Source: a virus
Lineage: Duplodnaviria; Caudoviricetes
Virus record (IMG/VR): IMGVR_UViG_2862465376_000001
Location: 92,950-156,949 of that record
Direction: 5' to 3' (one strand)
Length of the DNA stretch: 64,000 nucleotides
Part shown: positions 14,768-61,742 of the stretch, one piece after another
Layout of the letters: every line of letters begins with the position of its first letter
Position numbering within the stretch: the first letter of the stretch is position 1
Made by a program: the position numbers and the translations under genes
The notes under the pieces: generated by a model
What the model saw: only the letters and a program-made list of their open reading frames with translations
Told to the model about the DNA's origin: nothing
Databases searched by the model: none

Positions 14768-15414
14768 GCGACAACCTCCCCGCCCTCGCCGACCCGGACA
14801 GCGACGGCCCCACCAGCATGGTCCTGGTCAAGATCGGCGACCGCACGGTCCCCGCCAAGACCGGCCCCCGCTGCCGCGTCTGCCAGTCCCCCCACCGGGC
14901 CAAGATCGACTCCTGGATCATCGAGGGCTACACCCGGCCGACCATCCTCGAATGGCTCGCAGACATGGAGGAAGGCCCCGCAGGCCACCCCTCCGAGAAG
15001 GCACTGCGCGGCCACACCGACCGCCACCTGCCCCTGGAAGTCCGCGCCCAGACCGCCATCCTCGACCGCCGCGCCGGACAACTCGGCGAGGAGATCGAAA
15101 AATATGGCGGCCGTGTCGCCGACCACCTCTCCGCCCTCGATATGGTCGTACTGCAGGGCTTCGACGGCATCCAGAAGGGCACCATCAAGGTCGACGCCGC
15201 GACCCTGATGAAAGCCATCGACCTCAAGCACAAAATCGACACCACCGTCAGCGGGGGAGTGGACGCCAACGTCTGGCGAGACGCCCTCATGGAATACATG
15301 CGAATCGCCATCGGATTCATCCCGGTCGACCGCCGGAAAGACTTCGCAGCAGCCCTCGACGCAAGCCCCGTTCTCGCCGCCCTCTCGAAGAACGCACAGC
15401 AGAACAACATTTAA
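14764..15414 (+). CDS. Zn-finger/HTH protein, possible terminase small subunit
   Basis: CRVC...HTDRH then helical region; lies upstream of terL (function is inference). Confidence 0.4.
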   Translation: MSDNLPALADPDSDGPTSMVLVKIGDRTVPAKTGPRCRVCQSPHRAKIDSWIIEGYTRPTILEWLADMEEGPAGHPSEKALRGHTDRHLPLEVRAQTAILDRRAGQLGEEIEKYGGRVADHLSALDMVVLQGFDGIQKGTIKVDAATLMKAIDLKHKIDTTVSGGVDANVWRDALMEYMRIAIGFIPVDRRKDFAAALDASPVLAALSKNAQQNNI

Positions 15415-47299: not shown

Positions 47300-47329
47300 T
47301 AGACAATGCATATCCATGTGCATTAGGTT
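47300..47329 (+). promoter_or_regulatory. Palindromic operator/promoter, copy 2
   Basis: TAGACA-ATGCATATCCATGTGCAT-TAGGTT. Confidence 0.85.
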
Positions 47330-47364: not shown

Positions 47365-48744
47365 ATGCACGAGACCCAGACAATCCACCTTCAGGCCGTC
47401 GGCCGGGTCCCGGCCGTCCCGGCCGATGACCTGAAGCCCGGCGACCAGATCATGTACAACTACGGCAGTGTCTCCCAGGTCGTGAAGATCGTGGACGCCT
47501 CGCCGAAGTTCTTCAAGATCCACGAGGTGAGCGCCGAGACCGGTACGGAGTCCGTCCTCCGCGTCAAGAAGACCACCATGGTCGCCCGCGTGCCCGAGAA
47601 GCACCGCCGCCCCCTCGGTCACACCGACGTCCCGGCCAACCACTACCGCGCCCAGGTCCAGGCACCCACAGCGAGCGGTCTGGGATGGATCACCGTGAGC
47701 CACGGCGAGACCGTCGAGGCTGCCACGAACGGCATCACCGCATCGGGTGCGACGCGGTCCTACTTCGGTACGGTGATGCTGGACGATCACGGCCTCGGCT
47801 ACGCCGCTGATTCCCCGGAGGGGCGCGCCAACAGCGTCAAGGCCATGGCCGAGGGCGCCGTTCTCACCGCCGCCGACGGCCACAGCTTCCGTATCCTGCG
47901 GCCCAGCCAGCCCGACCCGACCGTCGCGCCCACCCTCACCGAGGCGCTCACCATCCGGCCCAAGCAGCTCACGAACCTCACGCCCGTCGAAGTCGACCGG
48001 TACAACGCCGTCGTTGCCGACGAGCTGTCCCGGCTCGCCGGTGAGGCGGACAAGGCGGCCGACGGCGTTCACCGCGCGCTCCTCCAGCGCAAGGTGAGCA
48101 AGCGCCAGGGGCGCGGTTACTCCGAGGTCTGGCCGACGACGCTCGCCGAGGCCGAGCGCATCGCCCGTCAGCACCTCGACAGCGGCTACACCCCTGACCA
48201 GATGGCCCGTGTACAGGCGGGCCTCACCGCGCCCGGGGCCTACACGAAGCGGCTCCGCGCGGCCGTCGGGCACCTGGAATCGACCCGCATGCAGACGCGC
48301 ATCATCATGGACGGCCCCCTCGTCATCCTCGACGAGGAGTTCCGCCGCCGGGGTGGCTGGTCGCGCATGTACCTGTGCACGTCCGACGGCGGGCACGTCC
48401 ACACCGGCCGCGACTGCCCGAGCATCGGCCTCCGCACCCCGCTGAAGTGGATCCCGGAGGTTTCCGGGATGGAGTGGCGCGAGGCGTACCGGCTGGTGAT
48501 CAAGGGCGCCACGGCGGGCACCGAGGCGATCATGTGCACGAAGTGCTACCCCGACGCGCCCACCGAGTGGACCGAGCGGCAGGTGCCCGAGACGGAGTGT
48601 CCCGGCTCGCGCACGAACGCGTACGACTACATGACGGAGAAGGAGCGCCGCCTGTACAGCAAGCGCGGCACCTGCCCCGAGTGCGGGCAGGGCGTCTCCG
48701 TCACCTCCGCCTGGAAGTTCCGCAAGCACGACCGCCCCCAGTAG
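47365..48744 (+). CDS. Hypothetical protein with Zn-binding C-terminus
   Basis: GGHVHTGRDCPS, MCTKCYPDAP, CPECG. Confidence 0.7.
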   Translation: MHETQTIHLQAVGRVPAVPADDLKPGDQIMYNYGSVSQVVKIVDASPKFFKIHEVSAETGTESVLRVKKTTMVARVPEKHRRPLGHTDVPANHYRAQVQAPTASGLGWITVSHGETVEAATNGITASGATRSYFGTVMLDDHGLGYAADSPEGRANSVKAMAEGAVLTAADGHSFRILRPSQPDPTVAPTLTEALTIRPKQLTNLTPVEVDRYNAVVADELSRLAGEADKAADGVHRALLQRKVSKRQGRGYSEVWPTTLAEAERIARQHLDSGYTPDQMARVQAGLTAPGAYTKRLRAAVGHLESTRMQTRIIMDGPLVILDEEFRRRGGWSRMYLCTSDGGHVHTGRDCPSIGLRTPLKWIPEVSGMEWREAYRLVIKGATAGTEAIMCTKCYPDAPTEWTERQVPETECPGSRTNAYDYMTEKERRLYSKRGTCPECGQGVSVTSAWKFRKHDRPQ

Positions 48745-48806
48745 GGCCGCCCCGGGCGCGCCCCACGACCGGGGCGCGCCCGCCCGGGAGGAATCCCGGA
48801 ACCGGC

Positions 48807-48836
48807 TAGACAATGCACATCGATATGCATTAGATT
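48807..48836 (+). promoter_or_regulatory. Palindromic operator/promoter, copy 3
   Basis: TAGACA-ATGCACATCGATATGCAT-TAGATT. Confidence 0.85.
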
Positions 48837-48878
48837 CCTTCTTGAGCCCGCCAGGGAAGAACGACCGAGGAGACCAGC

Positions 48879-49505
48879 ATGTCCGCCTTCACCTACACCC
48901 CCGAGTACCGCACCGGCCTCACCTTCACGTGGGAGGGCGGCGAGTACGTCAACACCAACACCGGCGCCGTGGTCAACGTCTGGCACATCAGCGACGACGG
49001 CAAGTACGAGGGGCCCGCGATCGAGCGCACGCAGGAGGCGTTCGAGGCCGCGTGCGACGAGTGGACCCGCGAGCAGGACCCGAACGACGGCGAGATCGGC
49101 GGCAAGGTCTCCGACCTGCCCCTGTCCCTCCTGCTGCGCCGCGACGGCGTCACGATCTCCTCCGAGCACATCGCCACGGGCGCCGACGCCGAGGGCTGGG
49201 TGCACCGCGAGTACCGCGTCACGCTCGCTTACGACGGCCGCACCTACACCCAGACCGTCAAGCACGGCGGCGAGGAGGGCGACGCGCCGGAGCTGGTGGA
49301 GACCGTGGGCATGCTGGTCCGCCAGTCGGCGACCGCCTACTACGCCGACAACTACGAGGAGTGGGCGAGCGACTTCAGCAGCGACCCCGCCAAGTGGATG
49401 CCCCGCGAGACCTATGACGAAAACGTCAAGATGGCCGAGGACCTGCGCGCGCTGTTCGGCGCCGACCGCTTCGACGAGTACGCCATGGCCGACCACGACG
49501 ACTGA
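48879..49505 (+). CDS. Acidic hypothetical protein
   Basis: GAGGAG RBS. Confidence 0.7.
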   Translation: MSAFTYTPEYRTGLTFTWEGGEYVNTNTGAVVNVWHISDDGKYEGPAIERTQEAFEAACDEWTREQDPNDGEIGGKVSDLPLSLLLRRDGVTISSEHIATGADAEGWVHREYRVTLAYDGRTYTQTVKHGGEEGDAPELVETVGMLVRQSATAYYADNYEEWASDFSSDPAKWMPRETYDENVKMAEDLRALFGADRFDEYAMADHDD

Positions 49506-49511
49506 CCAACG

Positions 49512-49578
49512 GCCCCGGCCCCGCCCACCACGGGCGGGGCGGCCCGAGCCGGGTTCGATGCCCGGTCGGGGCACTCCA
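49512..49578 (+). ncRNA. tRNA-like element 1 (acceptor stem + T-arm)
   Basis: GCCCCGG..hairpin..CCGGG-TTCGATG-CCCGG-TCGGGGC-ACTCCA. Confidence 0.6.
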
Positions 49579-49609
49579 CCATCATCCCGCCTACCGAGGA
49601 GAACAGATC

Positions 49610-50026
49610 ATGCGCATCACCGCCCGCACCGTAGAGCAGGTCTCCGACTACGTGAAGGAGGTCACCGAGGGAAGGTTCGCCCTCGGCTACCACAACAACC
49701 CCGGCGACGGTCGCACCTACGTGGACGGTCACAGGATGGCCCTGTCCTGGAAGGGGCGTAACGCGGCCATCATGGCTATCGCGTACTACCTCGGCGCGGC
49801 CCGCGCCTACCTGGGCCCGGAAAAGCCCTTCCCGGCGGAGATCCAGGCCATCCGCGAGGAGATCCACACCGGGGGAAACGCGGCGGCCTCCAGCTTCGTG
49901 GACGGCCAGAAGGAGGGGCGCGCGTCCATCGAGGCGAACAAGTCCAAGATCAAGGACGAGTCCCTTCCGGTCGAGGAGCGGCGCGCGGCCTTCCGCGCCC
50001 ACAACCGGCGCCAGGCCAACAGCTAG
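49610..50026 (+). CDS. Hypothetical protein
   Basis: GAGGAG RBS. Confidence 0.7.
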   Translation: MRITARTVEQVSDYVKEVTEGRFALGYHNNPGDGRTYVDGHRMALSWKGRNAAIMAIAYYLGAARAYLGPEKPFPAEIQAIREEIHTGGNAAASSFVDGQKEGRASIEANKSKIKDESLPVEERRAAFRAHNRRQANS

Positions 50027-50033
50027 CACCGCA

Positions 50034-50102
50034 GCCCCGGCCCGCCCCCGCGAGGGGGCGTGACGGTTCGGGTCCGGTTCGACTCCGGCCCGGGGCGCTC
50101 CA
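50034..50102 (+). ncRNA. tRNA-like element 2
   Basis: GCCCCGG..hairpin..CCGG-TTCGACT-CCGG-C-CCGGGGC-GCTCCA. Confidence 0.6.
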
Positions 50103-50130
50103 CACCATCCCACCTGCCGAGGAGAAGATC

Positions 50131-50484
50131 ATGGGTCTGACCATCACCGCCGACCACGTCAAGGAACTTGCCACTCTCTTCGGCGATAACGTCCTTGTTC
50201 CCATGCCGAGCAAGCACGGACCCGCCGGTGACCTGTGGGTGATCTCCACCAAGAATAAGCACTATGACGGCTGGCACACGGTCTACGCCACCGTCGAGCA
50301 GGTCAATGACATGGCGCTCGACACCGATTACGACGTGGACGGCCAGATGACCGAGGCCGCCGCCGAGCGTATCGCCCGCAAGCTCAACGAGACGCCGCGC
50401 GAGGAGGCCCGGGGGTACGCGCGCAGCGCGGGCAACCCGGAAGGTTTCTCTGCCCGTGCCATGGACGAGTTGCACAACAACTGA
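50131..50484 (+). CDS. Hypothetical protein
   Basis: GAGGAG RBS. Confidence 0.7.
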   Translation: MGLTITADHVKELATLFGDNVLVPMPSKHGPAGDLWVISTKNKHYDGWHTVYATVEQVNDMALDTDYDVDGQMTEAAAERIARKLNETPREEARGYARSAGNPEGFSARAMDELHNN

Positions 50485-50519
50485 CCAGCCCACCATCCCA
50501 CCACCACCAAGGGGAACCC

Positions 50520-51047
50520 ATGCCGGACATCGATCTGAGCAGTCAGCCGCATTGGACCGAGCAAGACCGCACCATCATGCCGACCGTCGAGCCCAGCTTG
50601 TTGGGCGTCCGCCGGGTCACGGTTGGACGGATCGGCCGCCTGAGGGCCGATGTTGAGCTGTACGCCCCCGTTCCTGACATCAACCAGGGCGGCACGCTGG
50701 AGCTGGGCCAGGCCCAGGTGCGCCACCTCTACGCCGAGTTCGGCAAGATGATCGAGCAGTGGGACACCGAGCCCCGCGACCTGGCCGCCGAGGCAGACAC
50801 GATCTTGCGCGACGCCAAGAACCTCGGCCGCAGCCGGGCAAGCAGCGGATACGAGATCGAGACCGACGGCACCGCCGTGTACGTCTACCACAACGACGGG
50901 CGCGAGCGGTCCCCTCACCTGCGCGCGCTCTACCCGTACTCAGACGTCCTCAGGGACTCCGGATATACCGGCGTGAAGCTGGAGGAGCAGACCGACGACC
51001 ACGCCGCCCGCGTCGTCGCCACCCCGCCCGCCGCCGAGGACTTCTAG
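50520..51047 (+). CDS. Hypothetical protein
   Basis: RBS, codon bias. Confidence 0.65.
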   Translation: MPDIDLSSQPHWTEQDRTIMPTVEPSLLGVRRVTVGRIGRLRADVELYAPVPDINQGGTLELGQAQVRHLYAEFGKMIEQWDTEPRDLAAEADTILRDAKNLGRSRASSGYEIETDGTAVYVYHNDGRERSPHLRALYPYSDVLRDSGYTGVKLEEQTDDHAARVVATPPAAEDF

Positions 51048-51054
51048 CACCACC

Positions 51055-51122
51055 GCCCCGGCCCCGGCATCCAGCCGGGGCGACGGTCCGAGACAGGTTC
51101 GATGCCTGCCCGGGGCACTCCA
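51055..51122 (+). ncRNA. tRNA-like element 3
   Basis: GCCCCGG..hairpin..CAGG-TTCGATG-CCTG-C-CCGGGGC-ACTCCA. Confidence 0.6.
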
Positions 51123-51150
51123 CCACCCGCCAAGAACACCATGGGGAGTC

Positions 51151-51854
51151 ATGAGCGAGCACAACAGCACCATCGTGAAGAGGTTCGAGGAGGCGGCCCG
51201 TGCCGCCGTCGCCAACGCGCAGGCGACGCGGGAGAAGGCACAGGCGGCCATCGGCGTGGACGGCCGGACCGACGAGCACGCCGACGCCGAGCGCATGTTC
51301 GCCGAGGGCATCCTGTGTCACTACGTCGAGCGCAGCATCAACGAGGACGGCACCCTTGTGCGCGAGCTGGACGAGAGCGACGACGACATGGTCAAGCACC
51401 TGCGCCGGGGGCGGCGGAACCTGATCAAGCGCCTGTTGTTCACGCCCGAGCAGCAGCGCGAGGGGATCGCCGGGCTTCAGCAGCACTACCGGCGCGAGGG
51501 TGCCAAGCGCTTCCTTGGCGAAACGACGTTCGTGCGCGTCGAGGGCGAGCTGTGACCGCCCAGACTTTCGATCTCTGGTTCGATACGGAGCCGCTAAACA
51601 CGATGATCCGCGACCCCGAGGGACGTCTGTCCCGGGCCGTGGAGGCGTGGGAGGGCGGCGACCCCGAGGGGGCCGCCAGGATCGCCCGGGGGCTCGCCGG
51701 GGACATCAAGGGACTGCACCCGCGCATGCCCTGGCGGGCCGCCTACGCCCTCGCCCGGTTCATGGTGGAGAACACCGCCGACGCCCGCCGCGAAATCCGC
51801 GAGGAGGCCGAGAGGTTCAGGGGCGCCGACCACATCAGCGACTCGGGGAGGTGA
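51151..51854 (+). CDS. Two coupled hypothetical genes (51151-51555, 51552-51854)
   Basis: GGGGAG RBS, GTGA overlap. Confidence 0.6.
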
Positions 51855-52046
51855 TCGGATGAGCCACCCGCGCCGACCGCGCCGACCGAAGAGGCCCGGA
51901 CGCCCGCACTAGGGCCGACGGCCAAGACAGGAGAGGAGTCGCCTAGACGGCAGCCATGGCGGGGAAGAACGGGGCAGGAGACAGGGCTACGCGCCCGCTC
52001 CTGCCCCGTTCGCGTGCCCGGAAAAGATCTTCAGCGAATCGCTTCC

Positions 52047-52071
52047 TATGCACATCGATATGCATTACGTT
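52047..52071 (+). promoter_or_regulatory. Palindromic operator/promoter, copy 4
   Basis: TATGCACATCGATATGCATT then -10 TACGTT. Confidence 0.8.
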
Positions 52072-52114
52072 GGTGTCGTTCCCGCCAAGGACACCCACCA
52101 CAAGGAGCGCCACC

Positions 52115-54166
52115 ATGGGCAAGAAGCTCAGTGAGCCGATGATCCGCACCATCCGCACGGCCTACGAGACCGGCGCCGACGCCGAGGGCCGGTTCGAGGT
52201 CGCCCCCGGTTCGGCCAACCCCCGCACCGTCGAGGCGCTGAAGTCGCGCGGCATGGCCGAACTGGGGGAGGTCGTCACCGTCCGCGATTACGAGACGCGC
52301 AAGCCCGTGCGCACCGTCACCCGCACCTACCTCACCGCCGACGCCGTCGCCCTGGTCCGCGAGATGAACGGCGAGACGGCCGAGGAGTCCCCGGCTGTCG
52401 TCGACCGGGTTAAGGCGGCGGAGGCTCACGCGGCCACCCTGATCACCGACGACGGCGAGCGTTTCCGCCCCGTGGAGCACATCGCGCCGGGATGGCAGAT
52501 CCGGCAGGCCGACGGCTCATGGAAGACCGTAGAGAAGACGAACGTTAGGAATGGCCCGAACTGCGTGGTGCGTGTCGACTTCACCGACGGTGCTACCGAT
52601 GATCTGCCCACTCACACCGAGGCGTACAGCCGCATGCACGCGCCCGCCGACGTCTCGCCGATCGAGCTGGAGCCGGTCATGTACACCCGTATGACGGGGG
52701 CGTACGGGATTGGTTGGGCGCTGCGGGTGTGCGACGACAACCGCGCTTCCGTCCGCGACGCGATCGCCCGCGCCCGGAAGCGTGGCAACGACGTCACCGT
52801 GTGGGACAACGGCGTGATCCAAGTCAACGGCGCCGGAAAGATCCATCACAGCTACAACGACGCGGGCAAGCCGTGCCCGGTCTGGTTCCTTCCGCAGCGC
52901 CCGGCCGCCGAGGAGCCCCCGGCCGCCGGTAACGAGTGCGACGAGTGCGGCGAGGCCATCCCGGACACGGCCGCCAGCATGGCCAACCCCCACCACGCCC
53001 AGACGTGCTCCCTGTACGAGGAGTCCCCGGCCGCCGACGGGCACCGTGCACTTATGGAGGCGGGGCACGCCCAGCTCGGCGCGCTGGCAAAGAAGTGGAG
53101 CGCGGCCGTGGACGCCGCCACGGCCCCGGCCGCCGACAAGGGCATGCCGTCGGGTGCGCACCGCATCACGAACACGGGCGAGAGCATCGAGGGCGGCACC
53201 GCGTACGCCTTCACCTGCTCGCGCTGCGACCAGCGGGCCACCCTGGTCGGGTTCGACTCGCTCAAGTGCACGCCGACGGCGGAGCGCGACCACGCCCGAG
53301 AGCGCGCCGATGGCCTGCTGAGCGACGTCACGTTCGAGGGCGCAACCGCCTACGCGCTCACGTCGCCGGACCGCTTCAGCGGTGAGCCGTCCACGCGCAC
53401 CGTGCTCCGTGGTGAGGCGCGCGAGGCGCTCGCCCTGTGGCTGGACGCCGGAGCGCCGCACACCTGGGGGCGCGGCGAGTTGCGGGTGCGGTGCTTCCAG
53501 GGCGATCACACGATTCAGCCCGTCGTCACCGCCGGTGCGGTGATCCGCACCGGCGCCGATGTGGTGGAGCTGTCCCGCGAGCCGTGGCGCGGCGGTCAGG
53601 TCTGCGGCCATCAGACCCAGTACGGCATGGGCGCGTACAGCGAGCGCTACTGCGGCAAGCGCAAGGCGCCGGGTCTGGTGGAGTGCCGCGAGCACTACGA
53701 CGACACCCTTTCGAACTACGGTCCCCGTGCGCTGCGTCAGGCCATCGCGTCGGGTGTCGCCGTCGGTGACCCGTCCGCGCCCGTGGTGCTGCTGTGGGAG
53801 CCGTACGAGGGTGACGTGCCCGAGGAGCCGACCGAGGAGGAGCGGGCCGCGTACGCCGCCGCCACGGGCGCCCCGGCCGCCGTCGAGGACCCGGCCACGC
53901 CCGCCGACGCGCCCGCGTCCGCGAGCATCCTGGACGTGTCCGAGCATGCCGCCGGGGCGCTTGCCGAGGACGTCACGCCTCACCGTGACCGACTCACGGT
54001 GCGGGTGGTGCGCGGGATGGACGACAACGTGACCACGGAAGAGCGGGCGTTCGTGGTGGGCATGGTGGCGTGCCTGATGCGGGCGGGCGCCCGCTACACC
54101 CGTACCGATGAGTCCCTGGTGCTGCGCCACGACGACGAGACGGTGACGGTGTCCCTGGCGGCATAG
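52115..54166 (+). CDS. Large mosaic hypothetical protein
   Basis: AAGGAG RBS; several CxxC modules. Confidence 0.7.
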   Translation: MGKKLSEPMIRTIRTAYETGADAEGRFEVAPGSANPRTVEALKSRGMAELGEVVTVRDYETRKPVRTVTRTYLTADAVALVREMNGETAEESPAVVDRVKAAEAHAATLITDDGERFRPVEHIAPGWQIRQADGSWKTVEKTNVRNGPNCVVRVDFTDGATDDLPTHTEAYSRMHAPADVSPIELEPVMYTRMTGAYGIGWALRVCDDNRASVRDAIARARKRGNDVTVWDNGVIQVNGAGKIHHSYNDAGKPCPVWFLPQRPAAEEPPAAGNECDECGEAIPDTAASMANPHHAQTCSLYEESPAADGHRALMEAGHAQLGALAKKWSAAVDAATAPAADKGMPSGAHRITNTGESIEGGTAYAFTCSRCDQRATLVGFDSLKCTPTAERDHARERADGLLSDVTFEGATAYALTSPDRFSGEPSTRTVLRGEAREALALWLDAGAPHTWGRGELRVRCFQGDHTIQPVVTAGAVIRTGADVVELSREPWRGGQVCGHQTQYGMGAYSERYCGKRKAPGLVECREHYDDTLSNYGPRALRQAIASGVAVGDPSAPVVLLWEPYEGDVPEEPTEEERAAYAAATGAPAAVEDPATPADAPASASILDVSEHAAGALAEDVTPHRDRLTVRVVRGMDDNVTTEERAFVVGMVACLMRAGARYTRTDESLVLRHDDETVTVSLAA

Positions 54167-61652: not shown

Positions 61653-61742
61653 GCAGCCCCACACGGGCCCGGCCGGACCGTCACCCCGGCCGGGCCCCCA
61701 CAACCCGCCACACACCCACCCAGACCCCCTGGAGCGCCCCGC

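Follow-up and report, generated by a model that had tools for sequence, protein, structure and literature searches.

What are three short sequences that resemble half of a transfer RNA (tRNA) doing between the orphan genes of a viral operon? They lie in 64,000 nucleotides (nt) of a Caudoviricetes genome (Duplodnaviria; IMG/VR virus record IMGVR_UViG_2862465376_000001, positions 92,950 to 156,949), a stretch that we call the window and whose coordinates are used below. We name the elements el1, el2, and el3 and number their bases in tRNA style, with G1 as the first base and 73 as the discriminator. Judged by their sequences, they are genuine conserved mimics of the tRNA top half, that is, of an acceptor stem and T-arm without an anticodon arm. 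As to function, we give a probability of roughly 0.5 to the reading, drawn from sequence and analogy, that they are bacterial counterparts of the t-elements of plant mitochondria, i.e., signals at which ribonuclease (RNase) P and RNase Z would process a polycistronic messenger RNA (mRNA).

tRNA-like elements behind stop codons

All three elements are on the plus strand and begin shortly after a stop codon. el1 (49512 to 49578; G1 at 49512, A73 at 49573, tail CTCCA to 49578) starts 6 nt past the TGA (49503 to 49505) of gene 1 (48879 to 49505). el2 (50034 to 50102; G1 at 50034, G73 at 50097, tail CTCCA to 50102) starts 7 nt past the TAG (50024 to 50026) of gene 2 (49610 to 50026), and el3 (51055 to 51122; G1 at 51055, A73 at 51117, tail CTCCA to 51122) 7 nt past the TAG (51045 to 51047) of gene 4 (50520 to 51047). 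From G1 to the discriminator they measure 62 to 64 nt. The 5′ part consists of a 7-bp stem GCCCCGG/(U/C)CGGGGC, C8, a 6- to 8-bp GC hairpin, and a linker containing CGGNNCGRG; the 3′ part is a T-arm (loop UUCGAUG or UUCGACU) abutting the acceptor 3′ strand, followed by a purine and CUCCA. In el1, the acceptor stem is GCCCCGG/TCGGGGC with a G7·U66 wobble, the inner hairpin is CCCGCCC-ACCAC-GGGCGGG, the linker is GCGGCCCGAG, and the T-arm is CCGGG-TTCGATG-CCCGG. The corresponding hairpin and T-arm are CGCCCCC-GCGA-GGGGGCG (GCGA loop) and CCGG-TTCGACT-CCGG in el2 and CCCGGC-ATCCA-GCCGGG and CAGG-TTCGATG-CCTG in el3. For el1 and el3, the three-way junction that resembles a tRNA was either the minimum-free-energy structure predicted by ViennaRNA or no more than a few kcal/mol above it (z of −2.9 to −3.0). 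A sequence-only reading of the window had described three elements of about 62 nt, 6 to 7 nt beyond stop codons, with these stems, linker, T-arm, and tail, and had held that they are not tRNA genes, having no anticodon arm; every feature it listed is present, and ARAGORN called neither a tRNA nor a transfer-messenger RNA (tmRNA) at el1 to el3.

At gathering scores, Rfam 15 had no match in the window, and its tRNA model (RF00005) found nothing at el1 to el3 either at that score or, on the plus strand, at an expectation value (E) of up to 10. A scan of a host genome and its plasmid with RF00005 returned 70 tRNAs, the plasmid's element not among them. With permissive settings, the best sub-threshold Rfam matches had E values of only 0.8 to 9, i.e., at chance level. 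The one Rfam resemblance, a weak one, is to the module of bacterial Y RNA (YrlA), in which a short hairpin precedes a T-arm: the Deinococcus_Y_RNA model matched a T-arm fragment at 18.9 bits (E of 3.2), far under its gathering score of 80 bits, and unlike Y RNA the elements lack a Ro-binding stem and are not stand-alone genes. They have in common with the tRNA-like domain of tmRNA, itself processed by RNase P, an acceptor stem set on a T-arm with no anticodon arm. Unlike tmRNA, with its G3:U70, all window copies have C:G at position 3:70, and they have no tag reading frame, no pseudoknots, and the reverse order of single strand and helix. The elements thus lack the canonical tRNA cloverleaf and possess the acceptor/T-arm stack, the T-loop, and the C74 context of a tRNA.

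The only promoter-like site in a scan of 48300 to 52200 is TAGACA-N18-TAGATT at 48807 to 48836 on the plus strand, and neither promoter-like nor terminator-like sites were found within the operon. At its end stands a plain 10-bp GC hairpin (51971 to 52007, plus strand) that is not tRNA-like. With a single promoter, no internal sites, and a hairpin at the end, the three elements are internal to one six-gene unit, which agrees with the earlier placement of the elements inside a polycistronic operon of orphan genes. The hallmark of an intrinsic terminator was also missing from the elements themselves, since no U-run follows any copy and the inner hairpins are succeeded directly by GCGGCC.., GTGACGG.., and GCGACGG... 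The scan and the Rfam search thus both favor the sequence-only view that these are neither ordinary terminators nor members of a known Rfam family.

A position between cistrons might nevertheless be explained without any cutting, if the elements were RNA structures that block 3′ exonucleases, terminate transcription partially, insulate genes, or couple their translation, the tRNA shape being incidental or inherited. The location directly after stop codons and the great stability of the inner GC hairpins (−15 to −20 kcal/mol) would suit such a role. Given the size of the ribosome footprint, the minimum spacing of 5 to 7 nt would bring the edge of a ribosome in termination up against the stem, and pairing within the acceptor stem draws the stop codon and the next ribosome-binding site together. 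We consider this account unlikely: the operon ends in a plain hairpin and not in a tRNA-like fold, no U-run or terminator-like site accompanies the elements, and the comparison of homologues given below also speaks against it.

A family on Streptomyces mobile elements

A covariance model (R1) was built from the three window copies, whose own scores of 77 to 90 bits (el1, 79.7; el2, 77.2; el3, 90) are accordingly expected; a second model (R2) was built from 20 copies. R1 recovered 13 further full-length copies of this long form (E of 1e-6 to 1e-12) in six related Streptomyces phage-plasmids or plasmids: three on Streptomyces plasmid pRLB1-9.1 (also listed as a virus in IMG/VR), one on a 545-kb plasmid of Streptomyces sp. 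NBC_00015, one on a plasmid of Streptomyces sp. cg35, and eight on three IMG/VR contigs of 79 to 156 kb. We take the replicon of the window to be a Streptomyces phage-plasmid, with which the IMG/VR relatives are compatible. Independent copies scored 43 to 69 bits with R1 and 32 to 62 bits with R2. Fifteen of the 16 long copies lie 6 to 8 nt past a stop codon on the sense strand, with a ribosome-binding site and start codon 20 to 35 nt later; the exception is the NBC_00015 copy, next to which no stop codon was seen. Because a model made from three copies yields full-length matches (E of 1e-9 to 1e-12) at the same post-stop position in other replicons, el1 to el3 are more than chance resemblances. 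In the 16-copy alignment, 95.8% of stem cells are paired. T-stem pair 51:63 is A-U in seven copies, C-G in five, and G-C in four and is never unpaired, while the acceptor stem is near-invariant, two of its positions switching to G·U or U·G. Hairpin types and T-arm types are recombined among copies, the A-type hairpin being found with three T-arms.

An A-type element is followed directly by a promoter-like sequence, TAGACA-N17-TAGAGT, in pRLB1-9.1 and one IMG/VR relative (loci L001, 5092 to 5173, and L009, past 10393 on the minus strand), so that there the element ends a transcription unit and is not internal to one. Other searches added little. In a phage collection, blastn found no match to the 2.9-kb region, and a single element gave just chance or true-tRNA fragments; a pattern scan of contigs recovered a single plasmid, and one of metagenomes gave true phage tRNAs (Lys and Arg), one chance match in a coding sequence, and no new copies. 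Within the window, a match to CGGGGCGCTCCA at 61730 (minus strand) was set aside as unrelated chance. A pattern scan of viral contigs turned up a different tRNA-like RNA in IMG/VR UViG_3300033388_004178 (locus L027, 6520 to 6595, minus strand). Its acceptor stem (GCCCCGG/CCGGGGC) is that of the elements, its T-arm is of the UUCGACU type, a 4-bp stem resembles a D-stem, and where the anticodon arm would be there is a 7-bp stem closing a 15-nt loop; ARAGORN makes no call there. Two metagenome contigs carry dense tRNA arrays of actinophage type (L024, 24 tRNAs in 2.5 kb; L023, 10 tRNAs and a tmRNA), whose tRNA-Lys(CUU) shares the acceptor start GCCCYGG with the elements.

Together, R1 and R2 also identified a short form of 51 to 55 nt in at least 19 of 151 sampled Streptomyces genomes, a lower bound because 34 candidates were scored per genome. 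It was found by blastn in 15 Streptomyces plasmids of PLSDB, with no annotated feature beneath any match. The short form retains the acceptor stem GCCCCGG/CCGGGGC, a 5-bp T-stem, a 7-nt T-loop, the R73-C74 tail, the post-stop position, and the orientation, and 4 to 7 nt plus a 3- to 4-bp GYGA/UGA mini-hairpin replace the 6- to 9-bp GC hairpin and linker. Its T-loop is mostly AUCGAAU (A54), compared with UUCGAUG or UUCGACU in the window. R2 matches both forms alike, and the tRNA-like fold is the minimum-free-energy fold of nearly all short copies. Across 25 of them, 99% of stem cells pair, and compensatory changes, with both partners replaced, occur at 7 of 12 pairs, among them acceptor pairs C3:G70 (to U:A) and C4:G69 (to U:A); these pairing values were unmatched by 500 shuffles, and sliding the partner columns abolished the signal. 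No ARAGORN tRNA overlaps a short copy, and the 19 loci that hold them have no Rfam 15 match. The sequence-only reading had claimed that the stems covary and had proposed covariance-model and Rfam searches as a check; these searches recovered homologues with compensatory changes in the stems and matched no Rfam family.

Most short copies lie 5 to 23 nt past the stop of a small open reading frame on the same strand, and wherever an adjacent frame could be called for a copy of either form, it was on the strand of the element, which began at least 5 nt (mostly 6 to 12 nt) past its stop. Neighbors encode a NUDIX protein, DUF4097, DUF6284, or a RapZ C-terminal domain. In annotated plasmids such as pFP11, short copies sit among small transfer or spread genes near TraA, TraB (FtsK/SpoIIIE), DUF2637, and a divergent GntR regulator, and an FtsK/SpoIIIE-family gene lies 3 to 8 kb from two of five chromosomal copies. 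Several chromosomal short copies (L034, 1569 to 1660; L039; L044; L046; L048; L043) have a second conserved module downstream, namely a hairpin and then ..AACGGCGCGCGGCCCCGG.., which forms a terminator-like hairpin; in L034, L039, L046, and L043, this module precedes a DUF6284 gene. When a class-wide sample was searched with R2, copies were found only in Streptomyces among the genomes searched; R2 is sequence specific, and so this negative says little about more distant mimics. On sequence grounds, the window elements are the long form of a wider Streptomyces mobile-element family that occurs in plasmids, transfer operons, and integrated elements.

Comparison of all 41 copies (16 long and 25 short) showed which positions are held. 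U55, C56, R57, the pair G53:C61, R73, and C74 occur in 41 of 41 and A58 in 40; these are the invariants of the tRNA T-loop and of the pre-tRNA 3′ end. A simple block to nucleases or ribosomes needs none of them, and the short form has lost the big hairpin and kept the T-arm and acceptor stem, both of which argue against the uncut structures considered above. Among 492 stem cells, G·U or U·G occurs 12 times and A·C or C·A three times, so that selection would appear to act on the transcribed sense strand as RNA and not on duplex DNA or the other strand; together with the co-orientation of elements and genes, this wobble bias points to selection at the RNA level. Three further ideas about individual parts were rejected: base pairing between CGA in the linker and UCG in the T-loop shows no covariation, and CGA is kept in copies with a UUCAAUG loop; if the CUCC tail masked the Shine-Dalgarno sequence that follows, it would do so with 4 bp only, and the tail varies in the short form; and competition of a downstream CCCGCC motif with the inner hairpin was inconsistent across element types.

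The surroundings of the elements are far less conserved than the elements. When 48.7 to 51.8 kb of the window was compared by blastn with the syntenic regions of seven relatives, the conserved segments were the elements plus about 10 nt of flank (75 to 92% identity) and nearly nothing else, the exceptions being gene 1, conserved in one close relative, and the final 100 nt of gene 2, conserved in a different one. el2 is 91 to 92% identical to copies in pRLB1-9.1 and in relative G004, whose flanking genes differ, and the proteins encoded between elements are unrelated to those of the relatives or share parts only. Behind the gene 1 homologue stands an A-type element in the window and G004 and a B-type element in pRLB1-9.1. 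Since the elements are conserved and the genes around them are not, the elements are under the stronger constraint. Elements of about 65 nt probably double, to judge from this pattern, as homology patches for the exchange of orphan genes between plasmids and phage-plasmids.

The same islands between nonhomologous genes, the change of element type behind gene 1, and the different combinations of hairpin and T-arm would also fit a function in the DNA, whether as attC-like borders of cassettes or sites of recombination, or as protein-binding sites comparable to TraB recognition repeats; small genes could then be shuffled, or the DNA handled in transfer, by way of the elements. Some short copies contain GACCCGG(A), resembling the TraB recognition repeat of pSVH1. 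A position after genes and mosaic flanks would fit an attC-like site, and the wobble bias toward RNA and the co-orientation argue against one. We regard a DNA-level role as improbable: the elements are strictly co-oriented with the genes and just past their stops, G·U is tolerated and A·C mostly not, the stems covary instead of holding a fixed binding sequence, no recombinase is linked to the copies, and ordinary homologous recombination at any conserved 65-nt patch can yield mosaicism. As a separate candidate, the TraB recognition motif GACCCGGA was rejected for the window, being absent from all three copies.

Conservation also bears on the origin of the elements. Among host tRNAs, tRNA-Arg(CCG) comes nearest to their 32-nt top half, with 27 to 28 of 32 positions identical, and tRNA-Arg(UCU) is similar as well; in one host genome, no tRNA shared both the T-arm and the acceptor 3′ strand with the elements. 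The tail also resembles the trailer of host tRNA-Arg(UCU), ..GCCTCTCCACA. This identity to tRNA-Arg(CCG) could mean that the elements are decaying relics of tRNA genes with no present function. Such an explanation seems to us most improbable, as the elements are conserved far above the surrounding genes, their stems are maintained by compensatory changes, and 41 copies of one architecture occur in many replicons.

Possible processing by RNase P and RNase Z

The acceptor/T-arm stack is what RNase P and RNase Z recognize, and minihelices act as RNase P substrates. Because the elements present a 12-bp acceptor/T-arm stack, a T-loop, a purine at 73, and C74, they are likely substrates of the host tRNA-maturation machinery. 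Both an RNase P RNA of type A (291 and 295 bits) and a full-length RNase Z-like gene (279 and 286 bits, slightly under the equivalog cut-off of 293) were identified in two Streptomyces genomes that harbor relatives. Thirty-three distinct tRNA genes were read in one of these genomes; all have C74, and 25 have no encoded CCA. The R73-C74-not-CA context of the elements is thus that of an ordinary host pre-tRNA, which still has to be trimmed at its 3′ end and given its CCA.

We propose that one mRNA would run from the promoter at 48807 to the hairpin near 52000 and carry all three elements. Each would fold as a three-way junction in which a 7-bp acceptor stem sits on a 4- to 5-bp T-stem with a canonical T-loop, with the GC hairpin and a 9- to 13-nt linker standing in for the D and anticodon arms. 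Cleavage by RNase P would fall 5′ of G1, 6 to 7 nt past the upstream stop codon, and that by RNase Z or a 3′ trimming pathway at position 73/74 or directly behind it. This would divide the operon RNA into units of one or two genes, free one tRNA-top-half RNA of 62 to 64 nt per element, and uncouple the stability and translation of neighboring cistrons.

Close parallels exist in organelles and in eukaryotic nuclei. In plant mitochondria, t-elements adopt a tRNA-like shape that is non-canonical, have a GGTTCRANYCC arm, and are cut by RNase P on the 5′ side and RNase Z on the 3′ side, which produces the ends of mRNAs as well as a stable small RNA (Forner et al. 2007, PMC1920247). The window elements have in common with them a non-canonical tRNA-like fold with an acceptor stem and a conserved T-arm at cistron borders in long transcripts, and el2 matches the GGTTCRANYCC arm motif exactly. 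They differ in being bacterial (plasmids and phage-plasmids) and without homology to t-elements; in having a GC hairpin and linker for the D and anticodon arms; and in their short, fixed post-stop spacing. A second parallel is with mascRNA and MEN-beta, tRNA-like 3′ modules of vertebrate long non-coding RNAs that are cut by RNase P and RNase Z. Cleavage of mascRNA frees a tRNA-like RNA of about 60 nt and sets the end of the upstream RNA, which is guarded by a triple helix. As with mascRNA, the tRNA-like module here lies within a longer transcript; mascRNA differs in being eukaryotic and nuclear, with a full cloverleaf and one copy per transcript. No account of elements like these from bacteria or phages came up when papers were searched by keyword, and a literal search for the sequence was also without match. 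New here are the bacterial mobile-element setting, the miniature architecture, and the fixed post-stop position; the principle is known from tRNA punctuation, t-elements, and mascRNA.

Several observations weigh against processing. Bacterial RNase P prefers a U before the cut site, and the base preceding G1 in the elements is G, A, or C. T-stem pair 49:65 is mismatched in el2 and el3, so that the acceptor/T-arm stack is 7+4 there, and the energy of el2 alone is indistinct from that of shuffled sequence (ViennaRNA, z of −0.5), its tRNA-like fold not being clearly preferred. U75 (29 of 41 copies) and C76 (33 of 41) are more constant than RNase P or RNase Z should need, and the near-invariance of the acceptor sequence in the long form could instead indicate a sequence-specific binder. 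By its predicted position, the 5′ cut would also leave the upstream cistron without a protective 3′ structure, the benefit of which is not obvious.

Alternatively, the freed tRNA-top-half RNA might itself be the product, made when a phage-plasmid or plasmid enters a cell and acting as a decoy, sponge, or cofactor for proteins that bind acceptor ends (for example, toxins that modify the acceptor end, the CCA-adding enzyme, or EF-Tu). It is true that the acceptor stem GCCCCGG/CCGGGGC and the R-C-U-C tail are conserved more tightly than pairing demands, that there are several copies per operon, that the elements are confined to mobile elements, and that the top half is like host tRNA-Arg. We still put this at long odds: a decoy needs no fixed short distance from a stop codon, and no tRNA-targeting toxin or partner consistently accompanies the copies, which lie beside varied orphans, NUDIX, DUF4097, DUF6284, and Tra/Spd genes. 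The sequence-only reading had suggested release of decoys against anticodon nucleases or sensors of uncharged tRNA, for which no linked toxin or sensor was seen; decoying of anticodon nucleases is the weakest of the ideas raised, since the elements have no anticodon arm to offer as a target.

The processing reading can be extended to a dedicated punctuation system common to Streptomyces plasmids, integrated conjugative elements, and phage-plasmids. In it, RNase P and RNase Z would excise top halves modeled on a host tRNA-Arg, and CCA would then be added to them, as the first bacterial equivalent of mitochondrial tRNA punctuation; the CCA-tailed minihelices may also act in their own right during entry into a new host, and the elements would double as joints for gene swapping. 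We offer this wider version as a tentative and rather doubtful one.

Gene neighborhood and implications

No Pfam family matched the six operon genes at threshold, and their PHROGs are of unknown function only. All are on the plus strand. Gene 1 is an orphan of 208 amino acids (aa) with a PHROG of unknown function, no Pfam match, and an 88% identical homologue in G004. Gene 2 (138 aa) has no Pfam match, and its last 34 aa alone are common to relatives. Gene 3 (50131 to 50484; 117 aa) has no element after it and is separated from gene 4 by a 35-nt gap, gene 4 (175 aa) has SnoaL_2 as its sole Pfam match, below threshold, and orphan genes 5 and 6 (51151 to 51555 and about 51552 to 51862) overlap with no spacer. 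A C/A-rich leader motif, CACCAYCCCRCC, occurs between each element and the next ribosome-binding site (49579 to 49600, 50103 to 50120, and 51123 to 51140); it is also present in the element-free gap between genes 3 and 4 (50485 to 50519) and recurs in relatives.

The 18-bp palindrome ATGCAYATCSATRTGCAT forms the spacer of the promoter-like site at 48807 and recurs in the window, with seven 18-bp copies against none expected, all listed on the plus strand: at 47306, 48813 (to 48830), 52048, 54248, 55563, 58884, and 60498. It fills the spacer of a TAGACA-N18-TAGATT/TAGCTT promoter at both 48807 and 55557, and the copy at 52048 follows the operon-end hairpin and precedes a start codon at 52116. 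In sequence, the palindrome looks like the operator of one repressor that would govern successive transcription units across 47 to 61 kb. Elsewhere in the window, ARAGORN called an 86-nt tRNA-Ile(GAT) at 14779 to 14864 (minus strand; anticodon at position 30). As the Rfam tRNA model stays below its gathering score window-wide, either the call is questionable or this is a highly unusual tRNA.

If they are indeed processing signals, the elements would add an RNA family that is unannotated in Rfam 15 and among the features under the PLSDB plasmid matches. They would serve as a simple sequence signature of operon structure in Streptomyces plasmids and phage-plasmids, and the conserved-island pattern points to a possible way in which orphan genes are exchanged as mosaics. 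Should the predicted cuts be real, mobile elements of bacteria split polycistronic messages by means of the host tRNA-maturation machinery. Such splitting is known in organelles and a few eukaryotic non-coding RNAs, and not as a systematic feature of bacterial operons; if true here, it would explain gene-by-gene control of RNA stability in tight operons of small, fast-evolving genes.

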